Origin: a virus
Reading direction: 5' to 3' (one strand)
IMG/VR virus record: IMGVR_UViG_3300045988_056969
Coordinates: 46,751-110,750 of that record
Length of the DNA stretch: 64,000 nucleotides
How positions within the stretch are numbered: the first letter of the stretch is position 1; each line of letters opens with the position of its first letter. The notes beneath the pieces are model-generated. The model was not told the origin of the DNA. It did not search any database and saw only the letters and a list, made by a program, of their open reading frames with translations. Below are positions 1-27,733 of the stretch, piece by piece. A program made the translations under genes and the position numbers.

Positions 1-308
1 TTACCATTTCTATATATCATAATTTAGCAAAATCTTCCTTGACTTTAGCTTTTATCTATTTTAATATGTTAAGATATTCCTTATATTCATTAATAACTTC
101 AGAATCAGAAGTAAGATTTTCTGAATAGCTATTATATGAATTGATTAAATCAAATTCTTCATCGACTGTAAGGAATCTTCTAACTATAGCTTTTACACAA
201 TCTTTGTAATTAGGCTGTCCATTTAATAATACCTAGATAAAACTATAGTAAGTTTTTTCTTTTATGGTATTGTCTAAATCAAGTACTTCAACACTAATTT
301 CTTTTATA

Positions 309-1589
309 TCATAGTTATAGTAATAAGTACCGTTCCCAAGTTTTTGGATTGTCTAAGGATAAACGTCCATTTGTATTCTATTCGGCTCTAACATAAGGTG
401 TTATTTTAAAATTTATAGGAAATTTGTATCTAAGCAAAGAATAGTGTAATCTCCTATTCTTACTTTTAAAATAGTAGGGTTTATTGTTATACATGAAATG
501 CACTCGAAAATGATTGTCATAATCAATAACCTCTACAATGTGAATATATTTATTATAAAACTTAGATATGTTAACTTCTTTTCCATTCCAGTTAGAGAAT
601 TTCAATCCAGTTAACTCCTCTACCTTTCTCAGCAAGTTCTTAGAGTTGCAAAATTTCATCCATCCAAAATAAGACCTCATTCTTCTATTCAATTCATCTT
701 TATCAATCTTATTCTATTTATATAGATTTATAAGCCTAAACATCCTCATTTTTATAGATTTTCTCAGTAGAACATGAGTATGATAGAATTTATAGCCTAC
801 GAAATTAATACCTCTGCTTTCTACAGGGAATATTTGATAATTAGGCTTCAACTCTAGGTTAAGAACCTGTTTCAAATATAGTTTTATAGATACTAATACA
901 TTTCTCAAATAATTCTTGTCATTACCAAGAATCACAATATCGTCAGCATATCGAAAGTAGTACTTACATTTTAACTCCTCTTTTACCCAGTGGTCAAAAT
1001 ATGTCAGATATAAATTTGCAAAGAATTGTGATAGATAATTTCCAATAGGAACTCCCTTCGCTGAATAAATTATTTCTTTCAACAGTTTTAATAGTTTTTT
1101 ATCCTTTATCTTTCTCTATAACATTTCGTATAAAATGTCGTGAGTTATAGAAGGATAGAATTTTTTTATATCCATTTTCAAGCAATACTTTGTTTCTTCT
1201 GGATGTTTCTATAACACCTTAAACAAATCATACTCTACTTTATGAATACCTCTATTTCGTATAGAGGAATATGTTTGGTCTATAAATATACTAGTCCAAA
1301 TAGGCTCCATAATATTCATTATAGCATGGTGAGTTATTCTATCTGGATAGTATGGAAGTCTAAAGATTAATCTTTCTTTAGGTTCGTATATTATAAAGGT
1401 ACTATATTCAGAGGTTTGATAAATCAAATCCCTTAACTTATCGGATAATTCCTTATTTTCTTTTAATCTATTCTTATCATGCTGCTTGATTCCACATCTA
1501 ATAGACTTATTTCTTCTGGCTTTATCGTCAGCTAGTTCGATGTTATCTTCAGCGTATACTTTCTCGTGCAAATATCCTACACGTTTCAA
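309..1589 (-). CDS. DGR reverse transcriptase; single gene requiring read-through of 4 in-frame TAG codons; real stop TGA at 309-311; start codon uncertain (TTG at 1587-1589)
   Basis: ORF-track fragments 1209-1589, 714-1082 and 378-692 share one frame and are separated only by TAG (plus-strand cta at 1209-1211, 1116-1118, 714-716, 378-380). RT motifs YPDRITHHAIM, FYPSITHDIL, PIGNYLSQFFANLYL (DGR-type I/LGxxxSQ), YADD. Lies next to a TR/VR pair. Confidence 0.8.
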
Positions 1590-1731
1590 TTTTTTATATA
1601 TTTCATCGGAAGCGTTCGAGAATTAACCTACTAACACCCTTCATTCAACACTACGTTATCTTTTGCCTAGAGGCAAGGATATTACTTAGCAAACTAAAAA
1701 AAATAATAAAATGTTTCTAAATATATAATAA

Positions 1732-1827
1732 CTTGACATTGGAATTGGCATTGCTGACGTCATTGTTAGAATTGAAATAGCTGAGACCTGCATTGCTGCC
1801 ATTATTCGCGTTGCTGCCTACTAGCAG
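1732..1827. repeat. DGR template repeat (TR), about 96 bp, non-coding, between RT and target gene
   Basis: Near-identical to 1932-2027 and (as reverse complement) to 29286-29375. Almost all differences fall where TR carries A in the coding sense. Confidence 0.8.
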
Positions 1828-1905
1828 TACTTTTTTGCCAATCAACGGTTTTTAGAAGTAATATCCTACGATTTATCATCTAAATCGATTTTTATATTGT
1901 ATATC

Positions 1906-3723
1906 TTAAGATACTCTATTCAGAGTCCTGAACCCGACATAGGAACCGGCATTGCCGACGCCAGCGCCAGAATAGAAATAGCCGAGACCCGCAAAGCCGC
2001 CATCATTCGCGCCGCCGCCCACCCGCAGCGTGCGAAGCGCTGTGCTGCTTGCGTTGCAGTAATGGTAATCGCAAATATAAGTAGTAGTACTTCCTCCAAC
2101 AGCGGATGGAATTATTTCAGCGGTTTCACCTAAGTCAAATGCCTTAATATAACCATCCGATGCTACTTCGTATCCTGCAACGGTTTTCTCTCCAACTACG
2201 TCTGTAAATTCCGATATGTTAGTAGTTGTATAGACAGTGCTAATCTCATTAGCAGCTGCTCTCACTACAACTACTCCGTCCAGGTTAGTCCAAATGTCTC
2301 CAAACGGATTATCGAATCCTCTCCAGCGAGGTACTTTAAATGTATGAGTTGCTACTGTATTTGTGCCATCTTGAGCTGTACATTCTGGAATAACTAAATC
2401 TTTTACTCCAGTGAAGTTACCAAGTTCATTGCAGTAACCACAAGGTGTAAGTGGATATGTTGCATTATACCCTAACCAACTTGTAGCTGCGTTAGCCCAA
2501 TCTGTAACTCCAGATCCTAAACCTCCTTGATGATATCCATCTGCAATTAACTCTGCATTATATGCAGCCTAAGAATTAAAATTAGCATATTCAATGACAT
2601 AATTCCAGTAGAATATCCATTTGTAATATTCATAGCATAGCAATTCTGAACCAGCATTTGTTGCATATGTTCTCATAGTAGCTCTAGAAATATTAGTTCT
2701 AGGCTTTCCTAAATCACTTCTGAATATATCCTTAGTTTCTAATTCTGTAGTTAGATAATCATCGTAGTTAGCTCTATTTCCTCCACCTCTAAATGCAGTA
2801 GTAGTATTAACTACTGATACAGCTTTTGGAGTTGCGGAGACTGTGGTATCAACTGTACTTCTGTATGCATCTATTAATAGTTCAGGAATTTCTACCCATG
2901 AATCATCAATTTTGACAGTAGAAGTTCTAACCCATCTTTTGTTTCCATCGCTGCCAGATTTTCCATAAAATTTAGGAGTATTAACTCTTACTGTTCCATC
3001 AGTTCCATCTAAGACAGATGGAGTTTCGCCGTCTTCTTTATAAGACCAGTCATCTGGAAACAGATAGTAATTTACTACATCATTGTTTGCTACACAACCT
3101 CTATACGCTGACTGAATAGGAAGAGATTTATGCAACAAAGGATTACCTATTCTAGTAAGTTCCGGAGATGCTACTGTAACATCCCATTCTACTCCATAGG
3201 AATATAAATCCATATTACTATTTAGCTCAGTAACCTACTTATCAAGCTTTTGTTGTGCCTTCTACAATTCTTCCCAAGCCTCATTTAGTGCTGTAAATTG
3301 CTCTTCTAGCTTAGAACTTGAATCTGCCCATTCAGCAGTACCATCTGCTGAGAAAACTAGCATCTATCCAGACGCTCCTCCAGATGGAATATGTTTATTT
3401 CCAGAAGTAGTTGGGTGTACATAATTATTAGCATTATTAGCTATAGTACTTAACTTTTCCTTCTCAGTTTCAGTATAATTGGCTTCAGAAAGTCCCTTTC
3501 CTAACTCCTTATCTACTTTGCCTTCAAGCTCACCCTTAGTAGCTAATTCACTAATATCCTAATGCTCAGTCAAATATCCACTATCATTCTGTAACTAAGA
3601 AGTTTTAGTTGGAATTGCATTAGCTTTGGCATATGTCGTATCTATAACATTTCCAGCACCATCGTAAGTAGCTTTTAAATCGTATGTGGTTTCCCCAACC
3701 TTTATAGATTTGATTGCTGCCAT
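1906..3723 (-). CDS. DGR target protein 1 (tail-fibre/receptor-binding-like, about 605 aa) with C-terminal VR; contains in-frame TAG codons; stop TAA at 1906-1908
   Basis: Frame-0 fragments 1906-2265 and 2569-3213 are joined by TAG (e.g. 2569-2571, 3235-3237, 3262-3264, 3364-3366). ATG at 3721-3723 lies just after an upstream in-frame TAA TAA (3733-3738). N-terminus MAAIKSIKVGETTYDL; Gly/Ala-rich C-terminus covers VR1. Confidence 0.65.
1932..2027. repeat. DGR variable repeat 1 (VR1) in the 3' end of a minus-strand target gene
   Basis: Alignment to TR gives about 25 substitutions, 24 at plus-strand T of TR (coding-sense A to N); one a-to-c change near the end. Confidence 0.8.
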
Positions 3724-3732
3724 ATCATTGTA

Positions 3733-6700
3733 TTATTAAAGTTTCACCAACTACATCGTGATCTATTCTCTCTATGGAAGCAGTTAGGTCCTCAACAGCC
3801 TTCTACAATTCTGCTTTAGTAGCATAGTTCTTGAGAACTTCCTAGTCTACTCCAGAGCCTCCTCCTATACTTCCTCCAACAACTTTTACTGGTTTGGCAG
3901 AACTCTTAAACTGTCCTTCAATATAAATTGTTCCCATATTGTTTAAAATATTAATTGTTCATTTTCTCCATCTACCTCTACACTAGAACCTGGCTATAAA
4001 GCGTCTATCTTTTTCTACAATTCGGCTACGGCCTAGCTAATTAGTTCTTCTACCTCAGCTTTGGTGTAGTATCTCTCTATAAGATATTCGCTCCTAACAT
4101 ATCCAGTATCTTGTAAATCTTTTTCTCCATAGGTGCAATAATAAGTATCTTCTTCAGTCTTACTATTCTCAACTAGGTCATCATAATCAGCTTGTGGTAA
4201 GCATACAAGTTTTGGTACTTCTTCAGTAATAGCAACTTGCTTGCCTCCAGCAAATAGCCTGTTATCTTCTGTGGTAAGTTTAACAGAACTCTCAATAACT
4301 TGCTCAGTTCCTGTTTCCTCAGAAGGTTCTCCAGTTGTTCCCTATTGTACTTCTTTTTCTCCAATTTTCTAAATAGTAATATCAGAAGTTTCTACTGATG
4401 TAGATTTCAAAAGCTCAGTGCTAAATTCTTTAGCAGCAGCAGCCTAATCATCCTGATATTTTTTCTAGGTAACAAATATGAAATCATCATCTCCGGTTTC
4501 AGGAGAGTCTCCCCTTAAACTTTCTTTTGTTACGTAATCTTCGGCTATCTAATCTGATAAATTAGATAATGACTATTGAGTAGCATAAGTAGACTGAGCA
4601 TTTTCCTTAGTAAGAAATTTGTCATCAACCTGCTAAATAGTATAATAAGCCTTAATATCTTCTGTAGTAACGTAGTTTCCAAGTTTTTGCAAACCTTGAA
4701 CTATTTCATCAATCTACTTCTTGGAGTAATAATTTGTAGCAACCCAGGACTGATATTGATTAGTAGTATGATAATTCTAATCCAAATATTCCTTAGTAAT
4801 ATAAACCTTTGCATCATTTGTAACGTCATATACATAGTAATATGTATCAGGCTCTACCGTCCCTTCCTCTACTAACTTTAGATACTCTTCTTCAGTTAAT
4901 GTTACTAAGTTCGGAATATCCGATTCAGTAGCAATCTAATCTTCACCTATAAATAATCCTTCAGACTTAACGTCTACTACTAACTAGCCCTCTCCCTCCA
5001 CTACAGGAGATTTTATCTACCCAACAGTGATGCTTTCTAAGGAGCCATCTCCATCTACCTTAAGAGTTTTATCTAACTCGTCTTGGATAGCCTACTAATC
5101 TTCCTCATATTCTTTCTTTGTAACGAAGACAAAATCATCTCCTTCCATTCCCTCTCCTCTAAGGCTTTCTTTAGTAACGAAAATATCGTTTGTTTCTTCC
5201 TTAGTATAATACTTAGTCAGTGATAGAGCTAAAGAATCGTTAGAGACATAATTAGTAGTTAATTCTTCCAGTGTAGCATAATCTGATAGGCTAGCAATAG
5301 TGTTATCTAAGTCTGTTCTAATCTATACTACAGTAGTATTAAGAGCCTTCTATTTTAATTGCTCTTCTATCTTTTTCCCCCATTCCGCGGATAGGTAAAA
5401 CTAGTTATCGTCTAAGCTATCCTCATATATATAATAATATGTCTCAGCATGAAGATATGGTTTACTTTCATCTATGGGCCTAAAATCGTCTGTAGTATTC
5501 TCAGACCATTCTTTATATTCAGCCTCTGTACAGGTGATTATCTAGATAGATTCATAGGATGCTTTCCATCCTTCCTTGTATTTAATCTTAGACTTATCAA
5601 TCAGCATATAAATATTTCCGTTATCTATGTTAGCAACGGTCATACCTTGATAAGCATACTTCTCTGGAATAGAATAAAGTTCGTCTAAGTTATTAACGAC
5701 TGTTCTATTATCGAGAGGCTTCGGAGTTTCTACGGTTAAAGCGACACCTAAGGTAGCATCACCTGTATATTTAAATGCCATTATTGTGATAGAATAAAGT
5801 TAATTTGATGTGGCAATGCTGAGGAGTAAGTATCTTTCTTAGTCCATACCTTGTAAGTAAATCCATTTATCTACTCGGTAGACGTTTCCCAACCACTTAG
5901 GTCTACATTTAAATATCCAAGTCCTCCATCTACGGTAAATGAATTTAACTATGTGTTACTTCCTGGCAATTTTATAATAGCCTTACCACTTAGTGAAAAT
6001 GTGATAGTTCCAGACGATTGTCCAAAAGGAACTAGCGCCTATTTAATCACACCATCAGTATTACCAGAATACCAAGGATATGTGGCTACTACCTAAGCGG
6101 TAGCGGAAATAGAACCAGCTTCTACTCTCTTATCTGTAACTTCTCCTTTATTATTTATCAAATATTCTCCAGCGGCATAACTCACTGTACCAGAGTGAGT
6201 ATAAGTACCAATAGAATTATATGTATCAGACTCTACAGGAGAACTGTTATAAGTAATAGTTTCTCGTCTGTCAGTTTCTTCTCCAGCATCATTCTTTATA
6301 AATGTAAGTGTAGGAGTTAATAAAGCAGTTCCCACTTCTACTATTTGAGAAGTAAAACTATAATAAAGCTATGGGTATACTAAATCTCTAACTACTGTTG
6401 GAAACAGTAAAGTATCAATAATTTCATTAAAGGGCTTGCCCTTAAGTTTCTCTACTGTAGTCCCTTCAATTACTGTTGAAGTAGTATCATCTGGGAGTTC
6501 CGTCTAATAAGTAGCTATAGTTTCTAAGTTAGTTTGTATATTAGTAATACTTTCAGTATTAGCTTCTACTTTAGTATTTGTCTCTTGTTGTGCTTCCTAA
6601 GTTTTCTATACTTCTTTCTTTGTTTCTTCTAGAGCAGGTTCAAGATTCTTAACATAGATACCTGGAAGGATAATAGAAGAGGTTTCCTCTCCAATCTCCT

Positions 6701-9700
6701 ATTCTATTAAATGAATAGCATTATCTTCCTAAGTAGATAAAATCACCTCTAAGGAATTATTTTCCTTTAGTTCTATAGTTTTGGAATTTTGGAGACTATT
6801 CTTAATCCAATTAAGAATGTTTTTATCAACATCTATATTCTCAATAGCATTGTTCAACTCAACTATAGCTTCATTGATTTTTACTATTTCTTCAGATAGA
6901 TTATTAATTCCTTTTCTATTAGTATCAATTTCTCGCTGTAAATCCTCCTTCAATACAGATATAGAAGTTCTAATATTGCTTATATCGACTTTCAGTTCTT
7001 CTATTGCTTCTGTATTAGATTCATATTCGCTAATAAAGTATAGGGCATAGTCTAGGGCATCCTTCACAGTATTAATGCCTTCTGCAACGTCACTAGTATA
7101 GGTCCATTTTTGTTCTATATACTATACTAGGTCTTTTTGCAGTTCTATGGTTCCACTAATGTTTCCCCACAATAGACTCTACTCATCAGCAATACCTAAG
7201 TTCTTTCTTACTTTAGCTTTTTCTAGTTCTGTCCTATATTCTCCTAAATAGTTATTTCTTAAGAGAGGTATAGGCTCACATTTTATAGGCTTACCCTTTT
7301 TACCACAAGGCACTATATCTGCGTTACTTACCGAAGTGTAAATAGACTGTATCATTCTAGTTTAATAATTGCTATTTAATAAATTCGTGATTATCTAGTC
7401 TTACAGGTAGGTTAATAAAACAAATTAGATTAAGAATATCTTGATAATCTGGTTTATATCCCTTTTTGAGTTTTCTTAGAAAATCCTCATACCTTTTAAT
7501 AGCCTTTCTCTTAAGAGCATCCACAACCTATACGTTTATGTCCATGGTAGTGATTGTCACAGAATCCTCCACAGGTACGGAACATCGCTAGTAATCTTTC
7601 AGCCTCCATGAATTGTTTAAAGCATATTAAATAATCTATAATGTTAAGAGTCATCCATATAAAATCTCGAGCAAATATATCTGCTTCCTAATCTCTAGTT
7701 AGACACTTATTTAGTAAAGCATCAAAGAGTTTCTTACAATAATTAATGTAACACTACTACAAGTTTCCTGTAAAGAAAACATCTACCTTACATTTTTTTA
7801 TAGTAGTTCCTTCTATGTTTCGTTCAAGAACTTCTTTAACTGTACACTCTTCTAGCTTACCTTCTACTTCTTTATATAATTTTTCTCCATCAGTAACATA
7901 GATAGTCTCATAGTATTCCTTGTATTCGTCCGATGAATTTTCATACCATTTCATATTAGGAATAATGATATGGTCTACTACGTAATAACCATCATCCTTG
8001 ACCTTAAACATACACGAGTCTAAGTCTTCTGTATGGTCATTAAGTAGGACATCTATCAGAGTAGCATCGCTTATACTAACTTTGATGATAGTATTCAAGG
8101 TAGCACTCTCACTATACTTATAGGAGTCGTAAGAAGTTACTACCTCTACATCTTCATCAATATACTAGCCATATTCTTTTGAGAAATCTTCTATCAGTAT
8201 TTCCCCATTAATTTGGGTATGTATATCAATACTAAATTCCATATTGCAATAATATTAAGTGTTAGGCCATTGACCGTATTGAGCTGGTGTAGAAAAAGGT
8301 CCCCACTTTCCAGATTGCTTTATACGTCTAGACATAAAAACAGAAGTAAAAGATAAACTAATATCTTGTGGATAGTCAGTCCAGGTATAAGACTATCCAT
8401 CTGGAGTAGGAGGTAATTTATCAATCCCAGAGGAGGGCTGTCCATTCCAGTAGTAGTTATAGTCATAGGCTTTAATAGAGGTTACTTCTGTGGTTTCTCT
8501 CCCGTCAGAATCTATATAGAGAGGATCTCCTTTTTCATTCGTTTTTTGTTTATACTCTATAACTGGTGTTATTCCCTCGGTTCTAGTATATATAGTCTAT
8601 ATAATAGTAGAGACATCACTCGCTACTATTTCATAGATAGTAGTTCCCTATGATTCATCAGCTCCCTAAAAAGTAAATTTAGTTCTTTTCCATATATATG
8701 GATTCTCTTCTGTTGGAAGCTCAAAAGTATCAGACCACTACTTACTTGATAGTTTTATTTCAGATTCATCGGCAGTATTAGCAGGGAGATAATGTATTTT
8801 AATAATAATACTATTAACTGCTTCACTTGAACCGGATAAATCTGATACCTACTTAAATAATTTTTTTAAGTCGTCTTCTACATTTGATTTAGAACCGGAA
8901 GCATTACTTATAATTACTGTCCCATCAGAGATAGGATAAATCTACTACTAATCTTTGTTGTATACAATTGTTCCAGTTGCCATATTAATGTATTTGTCTT
9001 ATTTTGTCATTATATGGATTTCCATCATGAAGCTAAGCCAACTCTATTTCAGTTCTTTTTTCTTCAATATCCATTTGTCTATCTTTATAAGTAGAATCAG
9101 ACTGAGCTTTAAGCCAGTTAACTTTATATTCTAACTGCATCTTCTACTATTCTAATCCCAGTCTCTATTCATCTAAGCTTTCAATCTTTTGCTGAGCTTT
9201 CTATAATTCTTGCTGTAACTACTAAGCCTATTGAGAGGTTTCTTCTAATTTTTCTTGTAGTTGCTGAAGCTGATTATTTTCCTCTTTGCGAACTTGAACA
9301 GCTTTCTTAACCTTATATTTAAGGTCTGTCAGACTCTTAGATGTAAGAGCCTCAAAAATAATATCTGGATCCATCTGTTGACTTTTTACGAACTCTGGAA
9401 TGATTGCTTTTATAGTCTATAGATCTTCCATCACTTCTGAACTAGCAGTAATATGAATATCGTAGTCAGTAACAGTAAAATACTCAGGAAGTGCTGTAAA
9501 TATCTGTTGATATTTATCCCCAAGTATAATAGTTCCAGTTAATCCTTTCTTATAAGTAACTTTAGCCTAATTAAGACTATCTAGTAGTATCTCGCAGGTT
9601 ATTAAATCCATCTGCTAAAAATAGTGCTTAGTTACTATATACGAGTTAGCTACTCCCTACTTAATATTAGTAACTGCATCTCTAGTTTCTATACCGTTAA

Positions 9701-11347
9701 GTCGTTCCCTAAATACTCCAGTTATTGATGATGTAGTTTGTTCTACTGATTGAATAGCTAATTCAATAGCCTATACAGCCTATGCTTTTAAGGTATCATC
9801 AAATCCGTTATATATCTAGTTTGGAGCTTGCTGTCCGTCATTCCTACCTTCTTGGCTTGAGTCTATCCACATGATACCACCTTTTTTATAAGCTAACCAT
9901 TTTTGTACTCGTTCTGGCCATTTAACTCCTAAGTTGGTAGGCAACAGAGACATATCCATAATAACTCCAGCAGTACCACTATTAGCTATTAGATTATCTC
10001 TATAATAGTTTAATAAGTCGTATCTATCCTACAGATGTGCACATTTTAATATAAGAGAATAAGGCTACTAAGAGCGATTTAAGAAATATACTCCATTTAC
10101 CGATAAAGAACAGAAGTTGGGATTATCTTTAGACCTCATAACAGTCTTGTCTAATCCTCTAAGAATATATATCTCTTCTCCTATTCTGATAGTATTGTAT
10201 CTCTACATCACAAAATCATCATCTGTTTCAATCCATTCAACATCATAGACTGGGATTAACTAGAACCTATGAGCACTATATTCATTGTCTGGATAGCCGG
10301 GAATGGTTTCATGATTCTAATCTTCATTTACTACTGTACAAGTATCTCCATATACTCTTCTATAAACAGCAGCTGAATCATCAGCTCGCCATTCATCTTT
10401 TAGTCTTCTTAAATCTTCTCTAGATATTTCTTTGCCATATTTAGCTAAAATCTAACTCTTACTCATCCACTTTCTTACTACAACTCTATATGAGTTCCTT
10501 ACATATGGAGATTCTGGATTTCTATCAACAAATGTATTAAGTGGGTTTAATACCTCTATTTCAATATTAGTTCCAGAAGCCGATGATTTCACTCTAAAGA
10601 ATGTATAACCAGTAATTAATAAGTCTGTTAGTAACTAACGTAACTTAGTAATTAAATCGGTTTCTCTGGATTGCATAATATAATGTACTATATTCTAAGC
10701 TGCAATTTCATATTGAGAAATAAAGGATTGGTCAATATCCTATATAATTTTATCTAACTAAGTCTTTACAGCTTTATCAGTAATATCCTTGCCATCAATA
10801 AACTTAAGAATTGAATTACTTAAATGGTCTTTCAAAAACTTTACTATTCCCTTGGTTATTTCTAGCTATTTTTCTCTTGTTATATTACTGATAGTATCTG
10901 AATCTTTGCAAGAAATTTTCGGAAGTATAGGAGTTCCTAAATATTCTCCAACTAGAGCATCTACGTGTTTCTTTAATAAAGGCGTAAACTCTACCGAAGT
11001 GGGGCTACCTATTCCGAAGTTTTCTTCCAGATAACGGAACTATTCAGGATCTCTTTTACCATTATAATAATTATAAGCTTTCTGTAACTCATACTTATCA
11101 TATACAAGTTCCGCAATAGCCTCGTTTGTCTTGTCTATCAATTCCTTCTCTTTCATAACATAAATTATGTTGTTCTGGAGGAAGTTTAGTAGCGTTATAA
11201 TACTTAACTCTTTGTAACTTCCTACTTCTTAATTCTTCCTTAATAAATGGCAGAAATTCTTCGTCTGGTAAATCTGCTATTATTACTAATGGCATTTCTG
11301 ACCTATCAAAGTTAAAAGAGACTTTATACCCAACTGGGTCTAAACTC
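3733..11347 (-). other. Late virion-structural gene block on the minus strand; genes fragmented by very frequent in-frame TAG; includes coiled-coil fibre-like fragments and a portal-like C-terminal region near 9.0-9.96 kb
   Basis: Only short same-strand ORF fragments (4173-4364, 5542-5781, 6093-6335, 6729-7067, 7757-8098) and none of 60 aa or more between 8.1 and 11.1 kb. Manual translation of 9003-9960 with TAG=Q gives a continuous protein with a portal-like Gln-rich coiled-coil C-terminus. Confidence 0.45.
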
Positions 11348-13711
11348 TCAATATCTAGTCCGCCTATATACTCCATTTTGTACAAGTCCCTCATATATTC
11401 TAGGATCACTTGTTTCAACTCTGTATGGGTCATCATATTCGTTTCTTTGCATATTAAGTTCAGGAGTTTTCTTAGTTGGAATAACTCCAAATCTTTTAAT
11501 TCCTCTCTCGTCGTAATAGTAACCAAAATCTTGGAACTATTCAACTTCTTTCTCCACAAGTACGGGCTGTCTTCCTGATAGCTCTTGGTCTGCTAACTCA
11601 GTCATACCTACAGCGGCTACAATATCATACTTACCCTTATTTTCATCATTATATGCAGTGAACTATTCTAGCATTTCTTCGAACCATATAGTATGGCAAT
11701 AGTCTTCTATAAAGGCGGCTGTTAAATCAGTATGCTATTCGATTATAGTTTTTGTAGCAGGAGTTCCATACTATTTAGTAGTTCCATTTCTAACGTCAGT
11801 TAGAGTAGCTCTTGGGCGCTTCATAAAATAGTTAAGGCATCCTTTTTCTCTAGCCCAAGTAACCATACCCATACGAGTAGCTTCTATATTTATTTTACAA
11901 TTATAATAGCGAGCTAAACACATAGCTATTTTATAGGCTTCTCTGATGTCTCCAGGTCTATCCTTGTACATAGCAACATACTGAGGGTCATTCATACCAA
12001 ACGCACGTTTCTTAATCATTATGCAGAAATCAGACGGGTCTCTGGTTTCCTTAGAAGTCTAATTCGCTCCAATATCAATACCGTCTATACCTGCTACATA
12101 TAAGTCTCGCATCTCTTTATAAACTGGAACTTCAAAATCCTAGCCATTATCTTCTGCCTCCTATCTAAGCTTTTCCATTTGTTCTTTATATAAGTCAGAC
12201 CATATTGGATGCTCTAGAATTTTTACTTTGCCATTGCTGTTAGGAATCCATTTAAAACCATCAATATTATCCTAAGTATGTTTATTATTTTTGTAAAAAT
12301 AATCAATATAACCACATTCGGGTCTTGGGCCAATTTGTTTAAGTCTTATATTAGCTATCTATTCGGCAACTAAAATTTTATTAAACTTATTAACACCTTC
12401 TAGATTAAATGCTTCTTCTGCATTCCAACAACGTTCAGCGCATTTCTTTAGGTAGTCTTCTGGTACAGCTAACAGATTATCTCGCTCCTCCTATAAGAAT
12501 TTCTTATATTCCACAGTATTACATACTCCTCTGTGGTCCATAAATTCTGGATTCAAAGATTGTATAAAGTATGGAATAAAGAATCCACTCTCTATAGTAG
12601 TCCCATCCTAAGTCCAATTATGTCTAAATGGAAGAATCTTATATGCTCTTGGATTATAGTAAATCTTTTTTAAGCCCTCTAGAGGAGCACCCATATCACC
12701 GCCAGTACCTCCAAACAACATTGTTCCACGAGGCATACCTTGAACTTCACAAAGTTCTTGACCTTGTACCACAGCGGTATCAAGTCCAGGCCAGGAACCA
12801 GCTTCATCATATATTAATAAATCTACACGGTCTCCACGAATATTAGATGGTTTAGCTCCGTTAATTGCTACAACCTCAGATTTAAATCCTACGTCTTCAA
12901 ACTAACCATTTATTTTGATTTGTTTACCTGATTTCTTTCTCAAATCCTGGTCAATAAGTCGCAATTTAAAAAATCCTCCTCCAGTACAGGTATTTAAGAA
13001 TGTAAGAGCATTATCAAACTTACTAAAGGTACCCTTAAGGAAGGTATCATTAAAGCAAGTAATCATAACCCTACTTCTTCTAATAACAGAGTACATACGA
13101 GCAGAAAGAGAGGCGTTTATTTCAGAGAATCCAATAGAACGAGCTTTCATTAAAGCTGCGTGCTTGTGTAGCACTCTAGCCATCTATAGATAATGAAAGA
13201 ACATATAATGTGATGCAAAGAATATTGGGAAGTCATTATCAGTACCCTCACCAGAGGCTTTCTGCTAGTCAATAGTAGGTAACTAATAGAAATTTAAGAA
13301 GAAGTAATTATCTCCAGTAATGGTGTATCCATTAACTGTCATTCCATACTTACATCTTCTATATTGCTCTTTCCAAAATTCGTTGTACCGCTTACTATCT
13401 CTAAGGTAGGGACAGTATTGACCAGTTCGTTTATATACTTCCCTAGTCTCGGTAAACCAATCTGGATTAAAGTCCAATCCATGAGTTTCGTCAATAGGTC
13501 TGTATCCAGTTATTTCATAAGATAAGGTAGGGTCAAATACTTCTATTTTATCTCCTATTTTAACATCCCAATAGTCAGAATTTCTGACCCTTTCCTCTCT
13601 TATTTTCTATACTAATTCTCTAGCTTCTTTAGCATCCTCTTTCTATTCTTTTTCTCTTACCTAATCTACAATATTCTATATTTCTTCAGGTAATATCTTT
13701 TTTCTTGGCAT
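11348..13711 (-). CDS. terL: Terminase large subunit (787 codons) with about 25 in-frame TAG codons; stop TGA at 11348-11350
   Basis: Same-frame fragments 11771-12019, 12902-13183 and 13283-13477 are joined by TAG. Walker-B-like VDLLIYDEAGSW; nuclease motif YVAGIDGIDIGAN...DPSDFC; length typical of TerL. Confidence 0.75.
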
Positions 13712-15823
13712 AATTAAAAGTCTCCTGGGTCAAAACCATCCACAGCTCCAGCTCTAACAGTAGATTGTTCAGTAAGTTCTTTCTTAACCTAGTCTTCTAG
13801 TGTTATGAGTTCTTCATGAACTTTGTGAAGAGTAGCCATTTCCTTCATTACTTTTTCAGCCTGGAATACTGGCTTGCCGTTATTATCACGCTCATTTAAA
13901 TCTACAATAGTTTCGAAATAATCAATAAACTAGTCTGCAGCTCTTTTAGCTGCTTCTAGTAATTTTATTGACTTGTTTGAATCTTGTAACGCTCTGTATT
14001 TCCTACAAGCTTCTCTAAATATAGGGTCATTAAATTCTGACTCTGTCAATCCAGAATCACTAATAGCTTCGTCATGTCGTTCATGTTCCGAATACTAACT
14101 GTACGGACTTTTCCAGTCTATAGCTAAATAAATGTAAGATAGTTCTCTAGTAGCTCTATCCTTTTCTGCAGATTTATCCCTCTAGATTAAAGCCTTAAAT
14201 TCCTTAACTAGTAATATCTCTGGTTCATTTATTTCTAGCTATTTAGTTAAAGTGTTATAGTTAAATACATTCATAATCATTAATCATTATCATACACATT
14301 AGATAATCTTATTATTTCTTTTTCATTTTGGAACCGCACTTATTGACTTTCATTTTTGAGCCACAAGCGTCTTTCTTAGCATATTGTTTTCTGTCAGGAA
14401 CCCATTTTCCTCCCTGGAAATTACCCTTATGTCCTTTATTGGCCATAGTTTCCTAATCATTGTATTTATTGATTGATATAGAATCTCTTGAGGCTTCGTC
14501 TCTAGCAGATTTCATATCTTTCTTATACTAAGCTCTTCCTGCCTTAAATTTATCAACTTCATTAGCTTTCTTAGTAACTTTAGTTCCTTTTTGTGCTTTC
14601 TGGCAAGCTTTACAGATTCTACCGCCTTGCTTAAAATATACAAGCTCTTCTCCTTCTGGACATACTCCTTTTAGCTTCTTATAATACTCAAGCTTAGCTC
14701 CAAGCCTAGCCATTACTCCTCCTTGCATTTTCTGCATAAATTCCTGATACTTAGCTTTAATGCCGTCTTCACCTAATTGTTCAGCATAAGCTTGTAAATC
14801 CTGTTCAGACTATATCTGAACTCCCTATGACTGCGCATCCTATATTAAATATGCCACAAACGCTTTTTGTAATTCTTGTTGATTATTCATTGTTCCTCCT
14901 TGTTGAAATTTAGTTGTATGTCCCGGAGATAATGTTAATGGTTTAGCTTCTGATTTTCTAGAATTCCATACATCTCCAAGATAATTAAATAATCTCTATA
15001 ACCCCCTATGTATCCCAAAATCTCCTCCTTGTACTGTATTTCCCATAGTATATCTAATGGTAGAAGGTTGTTTAGGCTTACTTGAAGGCTACTCGGCTCT
15101 TGTCTATTCACTAGCTGGCTAACTGCCTCTTGTAATAGTTGGTATTCCTCTACCCCAAGTAGTTCCTTTTGTTGTAGCAATTAGGTCTGGAGCTTCTATA
15201 CTAATCTAAGTATCTGACTAAGGAATCTGAATGGTAGAAGGTTGTTTAGGCTTACTTGAAGGCTGTCCTAAGTCTGTAGTATATACAGAATTTCCCCACA
15301 TAAACTGTTTTAGTCCTCTCTCTCTAGCAGCCCTAAAAGCTGTCTTAAAATCTTTAACACCTCTTAAATCATCCTAAGCTATTTCAGCAGTAGGAAGAGG
15401 TTCTAATCTTGTGGGTAATGAAGGCATTTCTGGAGCATCAAAATATGCCTCTTGTAACTTAGGCATTTTCTATTGTGCGGTTCTTCTAATAATGTCTGGA
15501 TTAGTTGCCCAAGTCTAATGCAACTACCTCAAGGTTCTCTCATCTAAGTCCGCATCTCCGTAAATAATTTTGATATTACGCATCAATTCAGGGTCAAACT
15601 ACACTTTAGCCATTACTTTTCTACTTTAATTAAATCCTTAGTATTAAACACTGCTTCCTACATAAGTCCGGAATCAGTAAACCATCTACATCTTAATCCT
15701 CGTAATCCTTGGTTATCTTTAAATAAAGCTGCTTCTCTTCTTAGAACAAGCATAACTGGAGAATGCATTACTTTACACTACCGTAAAGTAACACAATCCC
15801 CAGGCTTAAAATAAACTTTTTCA
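13712..15823 (-). other. Additional late genes with in-frame TAG (fragments 14528-14737 zinc-ribbon CxxC..CxxC; 14935-15180)
   Basis: Short minus-strand ORF fragments in several frames; boundaries not resolved. Confidence 0.3.
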
Positions 15824-16426
15824 TCAATTGTTTCCATACTTCAATTCGTTTCTTCTTTCAGTTAGATTTTCGTTAACTACAGCCATAATTCTGTTCTCAT
15901 TAACTACAACAAATCCAAACTTGTAGAACGGAACCATGCACTCGCTAGCTATTGTATAGAATACTATATCTCCAGGTTTTAGGAACTCACACTTGTGCCC
16001 GACCTCAATAACAGTACCCACTTTAATAAATTGTTGTTCTTCTTCTATTTCTCCTGTTTCATTAGATTTATATGTTGGAGCAAATCCACCTAAGTCTGTA
16101 ATTAATCCACTCTTAGTAGTTTTAATTTTTTGAAACGGATTTTGTTCGAAAGGTTTAATTAATGCATACCCATACATAGGCATAATTTCTACACCATTCA
16201 TATCCTCAGATAATGATTTGGCGTAAGATTCTAAAGCTGCATTATGTTTAGAGAATTTATCTTCTAATTCATCTACTGCTGTATTGAATCTTTCCTGTTT
16301 TTCTCTTAATAAAGTTTTATCTGCAGCTTCTCCATTTACTATAAGGTGCTGTCCTGTACCTTCCATACCAGTTATAGCTAGTGCTAGTTTCTCATTACTG
16401 TTCAATTCTGTTCTTAAAGTTTCCAT
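15824..16426 (-). CDS. Hypothetical protein (200 aa), TGA stop
   Basis: Intact ORF in the track; no confident homology. Confidence 0.5.
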   Translation of the reverse strand: METLRTELNSNEKLALAITGMEGTGQHLIVNGEAADKTLLREKQERFNTAVDELEDKFSKHNAALESYAKSLSEDMNGVEIMPMYGYALIKPFEQNPFQKIKTTKSGLITDLGGFAPTYKSNETGEIEEEQQFIKVGTVIEVGHKCEFLKPGDIVFYTIASECMVPFYKFGFVVVNENRIMAVVNENLTERRNELKYGNN

Positions 16427-16434
16427 AATTCATT

Positions 16435-16773
16435 TTACCATTTACATAAATCACAATGTTCATCTTCTATTCTAGTTTTGTTCTCTAGTATACAACCACA
16501 CTCCTCACATACTTCTCCAAATGAAGTCTGTAATTTATGAGGACAAGTATTACAAATATTTAATCTTGTGGTTGCTAAATCTTGATTAATTCCAAATATA
16601 TGGAAATATATACTCTTCAATATTACTAAAGGTTTAGTAAATATTGCTTTAATCCATTTCTTTGACATCTTTTCAGTAGGTTCTTGAGTCATAAGTATAT
16701 AAGCCTTAGTAGGGTTAGCCATTACTGGAGTCCCATATAGTAATAAATTATTTACCATTTCTTCGCAGGACAA
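16435..16773 (-). CDS. Cys-rich small protein (CNTCPH..CEECGC..HCDLCKW), paralog of 16752-16967
   Basis: ORF track; shares its C-terminal Cys motifs with the neighbour; TAA stop. Confidence 0.5.
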   Translation of the reverse strand: MSCEEMVNNLLLYGTPVMANPTKAYILMTQEPTEKMSKKWIKAIFTKPLVILKSIYFHIFGINQDLATTRLNICNTCPHKLQTSFGEVCEECGCILENKTRIEDEHCDLCKW

Positions 16774-16967
16774 TGCTTCTTCTCATTAGGTATCTTTAAT
16801 TCCAGTAGACATCCGCATCCTTTTATATATCCTTCTTTTGGACCAATACTTATGTCATTGTTTTCTGGATTTAAATACAACTGTCCATTACATATTGCAT
16901 CTTCTTGATTACATATTGGACAGCGTCTACATATTTTCCATCTTTCTTCTATTTCCTCTAGTGTCAT
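16752..16967 (-). CDS. Cys-rich small protein (CRRCPICN..GCGC..HCPAKKW)
   Basis: ORF track; paralog of 16435-16773. Confidence 0.5.
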   Translation of the reverse strand: MTLEEIEERWKICRRCPICNQEDAICNGQLYLNPENNDISIGPKEGYIKGCGCLLELKIPNEKKHCPAKKW

Positions 16968-16969
16968 AA

Positions 16970-17884
16970 TTAATATTCAATACGTTGACGTTTCTTTTTA
17001 TTTTCTGCCAATATAGATTCTTTCTTGTAAAAAGAAAGCATTCTTATTACTTCATCTTTTAAATATGGTAAGTGATATACTGTCATGTTGTCACTGTGGT
17101 CGAAGTGTACTAAAACTAAGTCTTCAATTTCAAATTCTGGGTTTTTCTTCTGAATCATCCAGGCGTAAGTACTTAGCTGAAGGGTATAATGCCAATAATT
17201 AACATCATCTAAATTATTTAGAGGATACTTCATCTTAACTGATGTCTTAGTTTTAGAATTAAAGAAACTCTTTGTTTCTATTTTTTTATTAGTCTTCCAG
17301 TCGCCAATAATTATCTTATTACCTCTTTTAACTAATAAGTCAATTTGTCCAGCTATTCTTAGTTTTCCGTCCTCAGATACTCTAGAGATTAGATACTCAG
17401 GATATACCCCATTCTCCAAATCTAGATTGTTATAGTCTTTTATACACTCAAACTTACCACCTATTTGATATTTACTTAGATCTATATCCTTCTTCTTTTT
17501 GTAAAAAGAGTTTTCCAAATCTGCATGGATTCTAGTTCCTCTCTCGCAAGAGTTTCTGTTCTCCATATCCCATGCATCTAAGATAGCTTGTTGTTCTTTA
17601 TTAAACTCGTCTTCTGTAATGTTATGAAGTTCAAGTAGAACTTTGTCAAATTTCTTAGTATTCAGCAGAGATTTTTTCTCGATAGCCCAATCTTCTTTAG
17701 GTAGAAGTTTCTCTAGTGCTTTATAAGCTGACCAGAACTCTTTATCAAAGGGTTGGGTGAAAGAATGAATTAAAGTCGTTACAGATATAAATTTCTGTTC
17801 TGGCTTTGTAACATCATAATAAATATGAGCTTCCTCTTCGAAAGCTATGTTCCCATTTTGTTTTGTAATTTTACTTTTGTCCAT
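16970..17884 (-). CDS. PD-(D/E)XK family exonuclease (RecB/Cas4-like fold)
   Basis: Motifs GQIDLL...GDWKT (D..E/D.K) and TLQLSTYAW (QxxxY); intact ORF, TAA stop. Confidence 0.6.
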   Translation of the reverse strand: MDKSKITKQNGNIAFEEEAHIYYDVTKPEQKFISVTTLIHSFTQPFDKEFWSAYKALEKLLPKEDWAIEKKSLLNTKKFDKVLLELHNITEDEFNKEQQAILDAWDMENRNSCERGTRIHADLENSFYKKKKDIDLSKYQIGGKFECIKDYNNLDLENGVYPEYLISRVSEDGKLRIAGQIDLLVKRGNKIIIGDWKTNKKIETKSFFNSKTKTSVKMKYPLNNLDDVNYWHYTLQLSTYAWMIQKKNPEFEIEDLVLVHFDHSDNMTVYHLPYLKDEVIRMLSFYKKESILAENKKKRQRIEY

Positions 17885-18007
17885 TAGTCATAATTCATTT
17901 AATCATTTATCACATTTATCTATATTTATTTGATACTTTTCAAGTATATTAATATTCTTTGTAAGATACAAATCAATAAATAATACATTATATTAAAAAT
18001 GTCTAAT

Positions 18008-18340
18008 ATGACAAAAATGGTAACATTTGGATGTCCAATTTTTAAAAACGGGTCAGGCATTCATATTAAAGAGAAAAACAAAGGTAAATTTACTGCCTCT
18101 GCTAAGGCTGCAGGATAGTCTGTACAGGAACATGCTAAATCTGTACTAAACAATCCTAATGCTACTTCTCTTCAGAAGAAGCGTGCTAACTTTGCTAGAA
18201 ACGCGGCTAAATGGAAACACGAAGATGGAGCTAAGATACATAAACCAAGTGGACATAGATCTATTCTAGATAATGGATGGATTCCTACTACTAGATTAAA
18301 GAAAGGAAATTATGGATTAATTAAAACAAGAAAGCAATGA
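18008..18340 (+). CDS. Small basic protein (110 aa) with one in-frame TAG (18116-18118); missed by the ORF track
   Basis: ATG at 18008 and TGA at 18338; a continuous reading frame if TAG is sense. Confidence 0.45.
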
Positions 18341-18415
18341 GCGCTGTAGTTAAATTAATTAAAGAATTTATACTTAAGATATATCTTTATTTACTATTTA
18401 TATTTAATAAGTAAT

Positions 18416-18607
18416 ATGGACTATAATAGAGCAACTCTTTATGCGGCTACTGGTCGTACTTTATTACTCCCTGGCTGGAAAGGGTATTTTTATTGGGACT
18501 ATACTAAGAATGAATTAAATTTTAGAAATGGAGACTATCATTTAGATAACAAATAGCTCAAGGAGAAAGGAGTTATGGAACGTAATGATTGGTATTATAT
18601 AATATGA
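18416..18607 (+). CDS. Small protein (63 aa) with one in-frame TAG; ATGA overlap with the next gene
   Basis: ATG at 18416 and TGA at 18605-18607 overlapping the ATG at 18604. Confidence 0.4.
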
Positions 18608-18996
18608 TAATTAAAAATAATATTATACCGTTTGGAGGTTATAAAGTAATTAATCTGTTTGGATTAATATTTACTAAGTCGGATTTGACTGATGAGGATA
18701 AGAATCACGAGAATATCCATTCAGTATAGATTTTAGAATGTGCAATAGCGTTTGCAATACTTATATCTATATTATTTGGATTAGAATGGGTATGGTTAGC
18801 TATTCCATCTTTCTATATCTGGTATGGATTAGAGTATTTAATTATACGACTATTAAGACTTAAAGATTCTCAAAATGATTGCTACAGAGATGTAAGCTTT
18901 GAAGAAGAAGCTTATATGAATGAAGACAATTTACAGTATCTAGAAGGATAGAGAAAGATGTTTTCATGGATAAAATATCTAAAAGTTAATGCATAA
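18604..18996 (+). CDS. Small membrane protein (130 aa, hydrophobic core ILECAIAFAILISILFGLEWVWLAIPSFYIWYGL) with 2 in-frame TAG; holin-like by composition only
   Basis: Manual translation; TAA at 18994-18996. Confidence 0.4.
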
Positions 18997-19748: not shown

Positions 19749-20063
19749 TCAATCAAGTTTAACATAATCCATCCAGTCTTTTATATATGATTTACATTCT
19801 TCCAAATCTGGATAGATACTTGTTATAGAGCATCCAGTTTTCGGATTTTTAAAGTGATGCATCTTAGTCTCTTCTTTTTTCTCCTCTTCTGTATTTCTAT
19901 TTAATGTTCTATTCCAATAGTTGTACTTTTCATCTAACATTTCCATATCACATTCCTCTAATATTTTCATATTAGGGTTATTCATTATCTTGTCGTATTT
20001 TCTCTTTAAATTAGAGACTTTGACAACATCATTTCCATTTAATACAACTGCACACTGTTTCAT
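19749..20063 (-). CDS. Hypothetical protein
   Basis: ORF track. Confidence 0.45.
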   Translation of the reverse strand: MKQCAVVLNGNDVVKVSNLKRKYDKIMNNPNMKILEECDMEMLDEKYNYWNRTLNRNTEEEKKEETKMHHFKNPKTGCSITSIYPDLEECKSYIKDWMDYVKLD

Positions 20064-20287
20064 TTCAATACCTTATAAGTACATATCTTGCCTATCTGTT
20101 TTCCTTGAATTGTTATTTGCGGAAGAAAATAGCAGGCTTGATTCTCAAATTCTTGAGGTACAAAGATATAATCAAACTTACTTCCAACTACCTTCTCACA
20201 AACTTTATTCCAATCGTCTCCCTCTTCTATAATAAGAGTTTTAGCTCCTGTTGGAGTTACTACATAATTCTCATTTAATTTTATCAT
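20060..20287 (-). CDS. Hypothetical small protein (MIKLNENYVV...); the track ORF is trimmed to the first ATG so that it no longer overlaps the tRNA
   Basis: Upstream part of track ORF 20060-20362 overlaps the suppressor tRNA and is judged spurious. Confidence 0.4.
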   Translation of the reverse strand: MIKLNENYVVTPTGAKTLIIEEGDDWNKVCEKVVGSKFDYIFVPQEFENQACYFLPQITIQGKQIGKICTYKVLK

Positions 20288-20304
20288 AACTATTAATTTT
20301 GGCG

Positions 20305-20376
20305 TTGCCCTACTAGGATTCGAACCCAGACTAAATGATTTAGAGTCATCTGTGCTGACCATTACACCATAGGGCA
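20305..20376 (-). tRNA. Suppressor tRNA, anticodon CTA (reads UAG); clean cloverleaf; probably Gln-derived
   Basis: Minus-strand TGCCCTA-T-G-GTGT-AATGGTCA-GCAC-A-GATGA-CTCTAAA-TCATT-TAGT-CTGGG-TTCGAAT-CCTAG-TAGGGCA-A. All stems pair. The D-arm is identical to the tRNA-Gln(TTG)-like gene at 34198. Confidence 0.8.
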
Positions 20377-20514
20377 GTAACTTATTTCTCTTTTAGAGAT
20401 TTATTTTCTGCTGCCAATTTCTCTAGTTCTTTTCTTAATTGTTCATTTTCGTGAAATAAAGCCTGCATAGTAGCGTTGATATTAGCTAATAGTATTCTCA
20501 TTTGAGCAACCTAT

Positions 20515-20916
20515 TCATACATAAGCTTTCAGTTGTTCAATTCTCTTTTTAGCTATATCTGACAATGCCATTTTGAATTTAGCAATACCAGCTCTTACTG
20601 TTTCTAACTTGCCGCTTTCTAAGCATTCTTGTATTTTATGAACTTCAAGCTCTCCTAGATATTCGCATACATCTATAAATAAATCATCATCTAGAGATTC
20701 TAAATATTTCTGGAATTGGTCTACCTCTTCATTAGCTAGACAGCTTTCTTCCTTCTATCTTTCATAAGATATTAATAAGAACAAAGAATCGTCGGTAGAT
20801 TCGGACTTAATAGTTAGTCCATTACCAGACATATAATATTCTTGATTCGTATTAATTGCCCCAATTAGCTATTTAAACTAGTCCTAATTTAACAATGTTT
20901 CTAAGTCTGTAATCAT
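20515..20916 (-). CDS. Hypothetical protein (133 aa) with 4 in-frame TAG; stop TGA 20515-20517
   Basis: Manual translation MITDLETLLN-Q-D-Q-FK-Q-LIG...; continuous only with TAG as sense. Confidence 0.45.
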
Positions 20917-27727: not shown

Positions 27728-27733
27728 TAAGAG

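Follow-up and report, generated by a model that had tools for sequence, protein, structure and literature searches.

The question raised by this locus is how one genome can carry packaging and structural genes that are interrupted throughout by a single stop codon, TAG, next to replication genes that are free of it, and whether this arrangement may serve to time late functions. The window, the whole 64,000-nucleotide stretch that was analysed (GC ~35%), comes from a large Zeta-type crAss-like phage of the gut with a genome of ~185–190 kb. From sequence comparisons, TAG very probably stands for glutamine in the genes for packaging, for virion structure and of the diversity-generating retroelement (DGR), where a phage suppressor tRNA decodes it. 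The labels 'early' and 'late' are assigned by gene function alone.

Most leftward genes are open only when TAG is a sense codon

The leftward block contains the following features.

17..394, minus strand: 125-aa ORF 3' of the reverse transcriptase (RT); 3 in-frame TAG; homologs in 2 related loci
315..1589, minus: DGR RT, 424 aa, GNYLSQ motif; 4 in-frame TAG; Pfam RVT_1
1730..1827, minus: DGR template repeat (TR), 76% identical to VR
1931..2028, minus: DGR variable repeat (VR), 3' end of the target gene
1906..3723, minus: DGR target protein, 605 aa; 6 in-frame TAG; stop TAA
3943..5781, minus: structural-block protein, 612 aa; 21 in-frame TAG; homologs in 10 related loci
5781..7355, minus: structural-block protein, 524 aa; 12 in-frame TAG; homologs in related loci
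7511..8242, minus: 243-aa protein; 4 in-frame TAG; homologs in related loci
8255..8983, minus: 242-aa protein; 9 in-frame TAG, three in a row at codons 12–14
8985..11156, minus: portal protein, 723 aa; 28 in-frame TAG; phrog_6547
11348..13711, minus: large terminase (TerL), 787 aa; 19 in-frame TAG; stop TGA; phrog_6681
13714..14280, minus: 188-aa protein (phrog_16390); 5 in-frame TAG
14312..15613, minus: 433-aa protein; 16 in-frame TAG, the earliest at codon 5
15613..15837, minus: 74-aa ORF; 2 in-frame TAG
15824–16426, 16435–16773, 16752–16967 and 16970–17884, minus: four TAG-free genes, intact in the standard code, the last a PD-(D/E)XK nuclease
17999–18996, plus: three small ORFs conserved in relatives; 1, 1 and 2 in-frame TAG
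20515..20919, minus: 134-aa ORF that opens the leftward unit; 4 in-frame TAG; homologs in 9 loci

When only TAA and TGA are counted as stops, long frames tile the minus strand between 17 and 15837. In-frame TAG totals 133 across thirteen minus-strand genes lying within 17–20919, and neither TAA nor TGA occurs in frame in any of them; in the ten main genes (4781 codons) the count is 124 against none of either. Because TAG, TAA and TGA occur out of frame in these ten genes at a ratio of 293:428:297, the probability that all 124 in-frame stops would be TAG is ~0.288^124, or roughly 1e-67. The initial annotation had proposed that the minus-strand genes become single frames when read through TAG, and this holds for the DGR target (605 codons), TerL (787 codons, with the 19 TAG listed above and not the approximately 25 it had given) and the RT with its 4 TAG. 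Each of these frames closes beside the next gene, as had also been noted, with TAA terminating nine of the ten main genes and TGA terminating TerL; the gaps between neighbouring genes are mostly 0–31 nt. The leftward recoded genes are thus readable only with TAG as a sense codon, and TAA and TGA remain terminators. The further statement that every long minus-strand gene is broken by TAG applies to 13 genes but not to the four at 15824–17884. Approximately half of the glutamine codons in the packaging, structural and DGR genes are spelled TAG.

The segment at 8.1–11.1 kb had been described as devoid of ORFs of 60 aa or more. None is present at 8099–10788, but an 81-aa plus-strand ORF occupies 10789–11034. 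The most highly expressed structural genes had been supposed to lie here; the segment contains the portal gene, in which TAG occurs once per 26 codons, and the gene for the 242-aa protein of unknown function, and not a demonstrated capsid gene of that kind. The DGR itself is real: 23 of the 24 mismatches between TR and VR fall at a template T of the plus strand (coding-strand A).

Two suppressor tRNAs are encoded in the window

ARAGORN identified 21 tRNAs in the window, among them the following three.

20304..20376, minus: suppressor tRNA family A, anticodon CUA (ARAGORN; Rfam tRNA 66.3 bits)
23344..23414, plus: suppressor tRNA family B, anticodon UUA, ochre type (Rfam 57.3 bits)
34199..34270, plus: ordinary tRNA-Gln(UUG) (ARAGORN)

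The phage encodes its own glutamine-type amber suppressor at the head of the leftward block. Suppressor A folds into a clean cloverleaf and lies upstream of the recoded block on the same strand. Its nearest relative within the window is the tRNA-Gln(UUG), to which it is 71% identical and whose D-arm it matches. The identical sequence is present in 29 sources, the window included, and its location upstream of TerL is conserved in relatives. Suppressor B is located on the early strand, ~2 kb into the rightward block, and its orthologs carry the anticodons CTA, TTA or CTG; at the same site relative L045 has a near-identical tRNA with the glutamine anticodon CTG. Suppressor B belongs to the early-strand block and suppressor A follows an ORF that contains TAG, so that their locations do not readily suggest an order of events.

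The rightward block largely avoids TAG

The rightward block encodes early-type functions, including a DnaB-like helicase, an SF2 helicase, a Toprim primase, an AAA_24 protein and NAMPT. The features that bear on TAG usage are these.

21241..21687, plus: first rightward gene, 148 aa; stop TAG, backup TGA at 21706–21708
21697..21719, plus: hairpin with a 7-bp stem following the TAG stop, GGGTAGG / CCTACCC, without a U-tract
27326..27727, plus: PD-(D/E)XK_5 endonuclease; 4 in-frame TAG; adjoins the second tRNA-Tyr
37858..38493, plus: GIY-YIG homing endonuclease; 6 in-frame TAG; adjoins the second tRNA-Cys
39942..40616, plus: early-block gene; stop TAG, backup TAA 5 codons on
45056..45370, plus: early-block gene; stop TAG followed at once by TGA (tandem stop)

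The 44 standard-code ORFs of at least 100 aa in this block end with TAA (33), TGA (8) or TAG (3). The replication and metabolism genes add up to more than 9000 codons without a TAG, and the replication/nucleotide-metabolism block reads alike under both codes. The first early genes had been said to end with TAG followed by a terminator hairpin. The gene at 21241–21687 does end with TAG, and its reading as a positional stop, as had been proposed, is supported: a paralog ends at the same site with TAA and the ortholog in relative L011 with TGA. The hairpin exists (stem 21697–21703 / 21713–21719, z = -2.6), but it was not called in a terminator scan, and the next two genes end with TAA. TAG as a stop in this early-block gene and as sense in the structural and packaging genes is supported, although most early genes simply avoid the codon. 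Nor is the recoding strictly late-gene-specific, as first described, or limited to one strand; it covers the structural and packaging genes, but two early-block endonucleases and the three plus-strand ORFs at 17999–18996 are recoded as well. Because four leftward genes are TAG-free and several plus-strand genes carry TAG, the partition runs gene by gene and not as a clean block.

A possible role of TAG in timing

In a published model (10.1101/2021.08.26.457843), TAG would act as a post-transcriptional gate on late functions. As the phage suppressor tRNA builds up it would outcompete release factor 1, and TAG-rich genes would become translatable, among them the selfish endonucleases that sit within the early block. 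An early/late switch with a role in lysis timing may operate here, and for this timing gate, taken by itself, we see the balance as about even.

The suppressors might instead be made from the start of infection, with TAG meaning glutamine throughout and with no regulation of late genes or lysis; the replication genes would then be TAG-free only because they have to be translated within minutes of infection, or as a legacy of their history. The position of suppressor B just ~2 kb into the early-type block fits such a constitutive code 15, as does the interleaving of TAG-bearing and TAG-free genes at 15.6–20.9 kb and in the tRNA array. The three TAG-ended early genes would also tolerate read-through, with a backup TAA or TGA 0–6 codons downstream in each. 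However, the >9000 TAG-free codons beside genes in which TAG makes up ~50% of glutamine codons argue for selection tied to gene class, and the same partition occurs in independent phage lineages (PMC7886860; 10.1101/2021.08.26.457843). We therefore consider constitutive decoding unlikely.

Somewhat less likely still is that the suppressors serve mainly as an anti-host weapon, corrupting the termination of host proteins, including those of defence, with TAG in phage genes being secondary and neutral. This idea was raised in PMC7886860 and PMC12386605, and published Zeta phages with CTA suppressors but zero recoding are known (PMC12386605, Table 1). The presence of two suppressors per genome, for one of which, the UUA form, the window offers no in-frame TAA, points in the same direction. 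A weapon would be compatible with TAG decoding and timing, but it leaves unexplained why TAG is confined by gene class and replaces half of the glutamine codons.

Homology continues across TAG and points to glutamine

Profile matches cross TAG positions in five cases. The RT matches RVT_1 (2.9e-19, residues 76–267) with two TAG positions inside, and the GIY-YIG endonuclease matches its Pfam family (6.2e-13, residues 1–91), also with TAG inside; the others are the portal with phrog_6547 (2.6e-41, residues 316–699), TerL with phrog_6681 (2.5e-60, residues 92–711) and the second endonuclease with PDDEXK_5 (PF11645, 1.8e-18, residues 11–121). Full-length TerL homologs of 775–788 aa are found on contigs of up to ~195 kb, and the DNA of two of them also contains in-frame TAG. 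At the codon level TAG exchanges with CAA/CAG in TerL; relatives L049 and L051 (~50% identity) have TerL genes without TAG and carry CAA/CAG where TAG is best conserved (columns 145, 273 and 454). Together with the suppressor tRNAs, these results strongly support the proposal that the structural and packaging genes use TAG as sense.

Across 13 genes and 15 relatives, 302 of 753 aligned pairs (40%, pairs that are not phylogenetically independent) place glutamine opposite TAG; in the same alignments it appears in 51% of pairs at CAA/CAG columns and 4% at Glu columns. BLOSUM62 sums at TAG columns were 2896 for Q, 1871 for E and 874 for K. By these comparisons TAG corresponds to glutamine. Another residue (Glu, Lys, Tyr, Trp, Ser and Leu being candidates, or pyrrolysine from ARAGORN's automatic label tRNA-Pyl) is very improbable. 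Glu is the second commonest residue opposite TAG (14%), but the substitution profile resembles CAA/CAG columns and not Glu or Lys columns, TAG-free relatives use CAA/CAG at conserved TAG columns, the D-arm of suppressor A matches that of tRNA-Gln, and suppressor B has an ortholog with the anticodon CTG. 'Pyl' is simply ARAGORN's name for a CTA anticodon, and no pyl genes were seen.

Damage, whether from pseudogenes, a defective phage or faulty assembly or sequencing, would account for the fragmented look under the standard code and nothing more, and it is effectively refuted by the occurrence of one stop codon of three in frame across 13 genes, by in-frame TAG in the same genes of dozens of independent contigs and by frequently conserved TAG positions (416 aligned TAG–TAG pairs). 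The TerL cluster, with 2365 member sequences, also speaks against it.

Relation to known recoded phages

The TAG-to-glutamine recoding is genuine, yet it is already known, since amber suppressors with a matching pattern have been described among the Zeta crAss-like phages (Yutin et al., 2021, PMC7886860; 2025 survey PMC12386605, Table 1 rows 13–16, e.g., ctHMy13, ctoVY1, cthgQ11 and 3717_85572). The likeness is drawn from described features; no named Zeta genome was close in the annotated phage collection. The relatives' genome sizes (~180–192 kb) and the GC content of the window are in line with rows 13–16. Shared features are the large tRNA set, a CTA suppressor, in-frame TAG in TerL and portal, amber codons inside a DGR RT with a GxxxSQ motif (GNYLSQ here), a forward replication/tRNA block in standard code, many homing endonucleases and a TerL distant from classical Crassvirales TerL (23–28% identity in the window). 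In published recoded phages, likewise, the replication genes keep the standard code, the structural genes are recoded and a suppressor tRNA is phage-encoded, with TAA favoured as terminator and TAG rare. TGA-recoded Agate phages have a recoded homing endonuclease within the early region, and the window has TAG-recoded counterparts. Unlike in published recoded phages, the search of the window, with 20 of the larger early-block proteins screened, turned up no lysis gene or cassette, no release factor and no aminoacyl-tRNA synthetase. For other crAss-like phages of the human gut, Peters et al. (2022, PMC9523058) report metaproteomic peptides in support of TAG as glutamine (genetic code 15), whereas for the window the evidence is comparative.

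A small new detail is the second suppressor with a UUA anticodon, which is absent from the table of 43 genomes in PMC12386605. A point mutation changing the anticodon of tRNA-Gln from TTG to TTA has been described as suppressor 'pre-emergence' in an alpha-group crAss-like phage (PMC7886860), and both that phage and the window have a glutamine-type tRNA with a TTA anticodon and no detectable reassignment of TAA. In contrast to the alpha-group case, the tRNA family in the window has CTA suppressor or tRNA-Gln(CTG) orthologs, the genome already recodes TAG, and the TTA form is present in at least 9 further contigs.

In-frame TAG codons in the leftward genes

When only TAA and TGA were treated as stops, the minus strand between positions 17 and 15837 resolved into close-packed long frames that are fragmented under the standard code. 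Among the 4781 codons of the ten main genes in this block, 124 are in-frame TAG, whereas in-frame TAA and TGA are absent. The out-of-frame TAG:TAA:TGA counts within the same genes are 293:428:297, and this ratio puts the probability of TAG at every one of the 124 positions at ~1e-67. The initial annotation had described TAG as the sole interruption of these frames, and the counts bear this out. Inclusion of the smaller ORFs 17-394, 15613-15837, and 20515-20919 raises the total to 133 TAG codons in 13 genes. Each of the ten main genes terminates as predicted with TAA or TGA (TGA for the large terminase, TerL, and TAA otherwise), and no gene in the window needs recoding of TAA or TGA. The only two extensions obtained by reading TAA as sense, 43502-44626 and 23358-23873, were rejected because their translations are of low complexity or overlap a tRNA.

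Identifiable features of the leftward (minus-strand) block
315-1589, reverse transcriptase (RT); Pfam RVT_1 match (2.9e-19) spanning two TAG positions
1730-1827, template repeat (TR) of the diversity-generating retroelement (DGR); 23 of 24 TR-VR differences at coding-strand adenines
1931-2028, DGR variable repeat (VR), at the 3' end of the 605-aa target gene
8985-11156, portal; PHROG match across many TAG positions
11348-13711, TerL; PHROG match across many TAG positions

Homology matches continue through the TAG positions in the conserved genes, as expected if TAG is sense. The RT, the adenine-specific TR/VR differences, and the location of the VR at the 3' end of its target are all present, as in a DGR. 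The 605-codon target contains six in-frame TAG codons, and the four expected in the RT were found; TerL has the expected 787 codons but only 19 TAG codons rather than about 25. Similarly, a stretch free of standard-code ORFs of at least 60 aa does exist, but its limits are 8099-10788 and not 8.1-11.1 kb; it codes for the portal and a 242-aa protein. The gene for the latter (8255-8983, minus strand, in the structural block) carries three TAG codons in tandem at codons 12-14. A first TAG close to the gene start is also seen in 14312-15613 (codon 5), TerL (codon 12), and 20515-20919 (codon 12).

Amino acid specified by TAG

Close homologs of TerL number in the thousands (2365 sequences in its cluster), are 775-788 aa long, and are encoded on contigs of 180-195 kb. 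Most relatives are also recoded, with 9-31 TAG codons per TerL gene, and two relatives with ~50% identity (L049 and L051) have TerL genes without TAG. In codon alignments of TerL, TAG exchanges mainly with CAA and CAG, and both TAG-free genes have CAA or CAG in three conserved columns (145, 273, and 454). Across 13 genes and 15 relatives, glutamine is opposite a window TAG in 302 of 753 pairs (40%), as compared with reference values of 51% at ordinary glutamine columns and 4% at glutamate columns. BLOSUM62 sums at the TAG positions rank glutamine (2896) ahead of glutamate (1871) and lysine (874). These comparisons match the TAG positions to glutamine in the homologs. Of the inferred glutamine codons in each gene, 38-67% are TAG.

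The TerL genes of four related loci (L045, L050, L032, and L052) hold large insertions; the window TerL has none. The 1131-aa TerL homolog P0003 contains Hom_end/LAGLIDADG domains, identifying its insertion as an intein.

Suppressor tRNAs

Two candidate suppressor tRNA genes were located.

20304-20376, minus strand, suppressor A, tRNA(CUA); upstream of the recoded block, clean cloverleaf, Rfam tRNA 66.3 bits
23344-23414, plus strand, suppressor B; second conserved family, UUA anticodon in the window, Rfam 57.3 bits

Suppressor A is nearest in sequence to the tRNA-Gln(UUG) of the window, with which it has the D-arm in common, and it is kept in relatives, the identical sequence occurring in 29 sources including the window. 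Orthologs of suppressor B are present in related loci L004-L050, where the anticodon is CTA at 17 loci and CTG (Gln) in L045; TTA is found in the window and in nine other contigs, among them IMGVR_UViG_3300045988_050009, as two full-length sequence variants. The variants of suppressor B differ by compensatory stem changes, which together with the CTG ortholog provide further evidence for a glutamine identity. Taken together, the sequence comparisons show that the leftward recoded genes are readable only with TAG as glutamine and that the phage supplies tRNAs to match.

Despite the ochre-type anticodon of suppressor B, there are no in-frame TAA codons in the late genes of the window, and TAA is the main stop codon of the phage. 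Selection for tandem stops was considered as a signature of ochre suppression and rejected; an immediate second stop follows 6 of 37 TAA-ending early genes, which was judged to be near chance. A scheme in which the suppressor B anticodon shifted by single-base steps between CUG, CUA, and UUA among close relatives, with UUA becoming fixed in a sub-lineage and expected to read TAA, is considered unlikely. If the UUA form were active, it could promote low-level read-through of TAA, giving C-terminal extensions or sabotaging host termination; alternatively, it could represent a first step to reassignment of TAA, TAG being already reassigned, or it could be just an amber suppressor reading by wobble. 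The CUG, CUA, and UUA series provides natural material for studying the origin and tolerance of suppressor tRNAs.

The rightward block under the standard code

From position 21241 the plus strand encodes a DnaB-like helicase, an SF2 helicase, a Toprim primase, AAA_24, and 20 tRNAs, along with NAMPT/PRTase, SPFH, and OmpA-like genes. Under the standard code, 44 plus-strand ORFs of at least 100 aa account for 9273 codons and leave only 10 gaps of at least 250 nt. These ORFs end with TAA in 33 cases, TGA in eight, and TAG in three, and each of the three TAG stops is backed by another stop.

21241-21687, plus strand, early gene with TAG stop; backup TGA 6 codons later
39942-40616, plus strand, early gene with TAG stop; backup TAA 5 codons later
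45056-45370, plus strand, early gene with TAG stop; TGA directly after

The TAG of 21241-21687, which had been proposed as a true stop, is upheld as such: the paralog 22121-22579 ends at the same point with TAA, and an ortholog in the related locus L011 (93% identity) ends there with TGA. Exchange of TAG with TGA at this early stop and with CAA/CAG within the late genes supports the dual use of TAG as an early stop and a late sense codon put forward in the initial annotation, although the main trait of the early block is instead avoidance of TAG. The hairpin said to follow position 21687 is present as a 7-bp stem, but it is not a canonical intrinsic terminator, as it lacks a U-tract and was not called by the scan. 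A "code-change module" of release factor or aminoacyl-tRNA synthetase genes was sought and dismissed; neither kind of gene, nor any lysis gene, turned up among the 20 larger early-block proteins screened.

The first two rightward genes, 21241-21687 and 22121-22579 (plus strand), are paralogs with 44% identity. The plus-strand auxiliary genes at 31025-32983, 48408-49235, 46954-47970, and 50090-51614 are unusual for a phage; this set comprises two SPFH/Band-7 proteins, an OmpA-like beta-barrel protein, and NAMPT/PRTase-type NAD-salvage enzymes. Gene orientation switches at ~20900-21250, where cumulative GC skew reaches its minimum (20-22 kb), as would fit a replication origin lying between the two diverging sets of genes. 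Neither strand of a ~640-nt segment (44417-45055) has a convincing ORF in any tested code, and Rfam gives no match as far as 45000, so that this segment may be non-coding.

Probable relationship to Zeta crAss-like phages and proposed timing of expression

Phage genomes that combine two coding regimes have been known since 2014-2022. Within the Zeta group of crAss-like phages itself two regimes have already been described (PMC7886860, PMC12386605). TerL of the window matches Crassvirales TerL proteins at 23-28% identity as well as crAss-associated PHROGs, the best match in annotated phage collections being 45% identical and itself unannotated; no MCP gene is present in the window. Yutin et al. 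(2021, PMC7886860) give 145-192 kb as the genome size of Zeta phages and note numerous tRNAs, introns, and inteins, and a 2025 survey gives 176-189 kb, ~35% GC, 23-27 tRNAs, a CTA suppressor, amber suppression, and a DGR (PMC12386605). The window and its relatives display contigs of 180-195 kb (relatives), 21 tRNAs in the window, homing endonuclease genes, and an intein-type TerL insertion in relatives (P0003 and L045). The Zeta-type replication block (DnaG-type primase, DnaB and SNF2-type helicases, AAA+ ATPase) is represented by Toprim_2, DnaB_C, ResIII/Helicase_C, AAA, and AAA_24. The survey also reports that seven RT genes contain amber codons, and it describes an RT motif, GxxxSQ, that compares with GNYLSQ in the window (PMC12386605). 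Each of these features is consistent with a putative crAss-like phage of the Zeta group.

For other crAss-like phages, Peters et al. (2022, PMC9523058) report peptide evidence for TAG=Gln, and an analogous TTG-to-TTA anticodon change is described in an alpha-group phage (PMC7886860). The recoding in the window is a known phenomenon in a known and very abundant lineage, and the agreement with the Zeta literature indicates that the initial annotation had read it correctly. The UUA variant of suppressor B, with the CUG/CUA/UUA series, is the sole detail that we did not find in the cited literature. The window is a further clear case of one phage genome with two coding regimes. For annotation, it should be translated gene by gene with TAG=Gln, as the standard code breaks TerL, the portal, the DGR RT, the DGR target, and two endonuclease genes into pieces.

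The initial interpretation is supported in part: the recoding is evident in the sequence, and a role in lysis timing would follow the model proposed by Borges et al. By analogy with that model, translation of TAG-rich genes would be held until suppressor tRNA builds up in a standard-code host, and TAG codons near gene starts would block translation tightly without suppression.

Exceptions to the late-only partition

Recoding does not extend to every long minus-strand gene, as had been claimed, since four genes within 15824-17884, including one for a PD-(D/E)XK nuclease, are free of TAG. Conversely, three conserved plus-strand ORFs within 17999-18996 contain TAG, as do two homing-type endonuclease genes within the early tRNA array.

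27326-27727, plus strand, PDDEXK_5 endonuclease gene; 4 TAG codons
37858-38493, plus strand, GIY-YIG endonuclease gene; 6 TAG codons

A recoded intron endonuclease inside an early gene has already been described in TGA-recoded phages (10.1101/2021.08.26.457843). ORF 61534-62079 has a single TAG at codon 4, which would be bypassed by starting downstream. The TAG-sense ORF 39497-39838 was discarded as spurious owing to its overlap with an Rfam tRNA match (39561-39633).

Second, divergent tRNA copies adjoin both recoded endonucleases, tRNA-Tyr (27734-27818) next to PDDEXK_5 and tRNA-Cys (37753-37838) next to GIY-YIG, and the segments 27326-27818 and 37753-38493 may be mobile endonuclease-plus-tRNA cassettes. 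The Rfam match to the second tRNA-Tyr reaches 27872, and its length of 137 nt suggests an insertion. Weak plus-strand Rfam tRNA matches at 39561-39633 (39.5 bits) and 39851-39906 (32.9 bits), neither of which was called by ARAGORN, may represent divergent or degraded tRNA genes.
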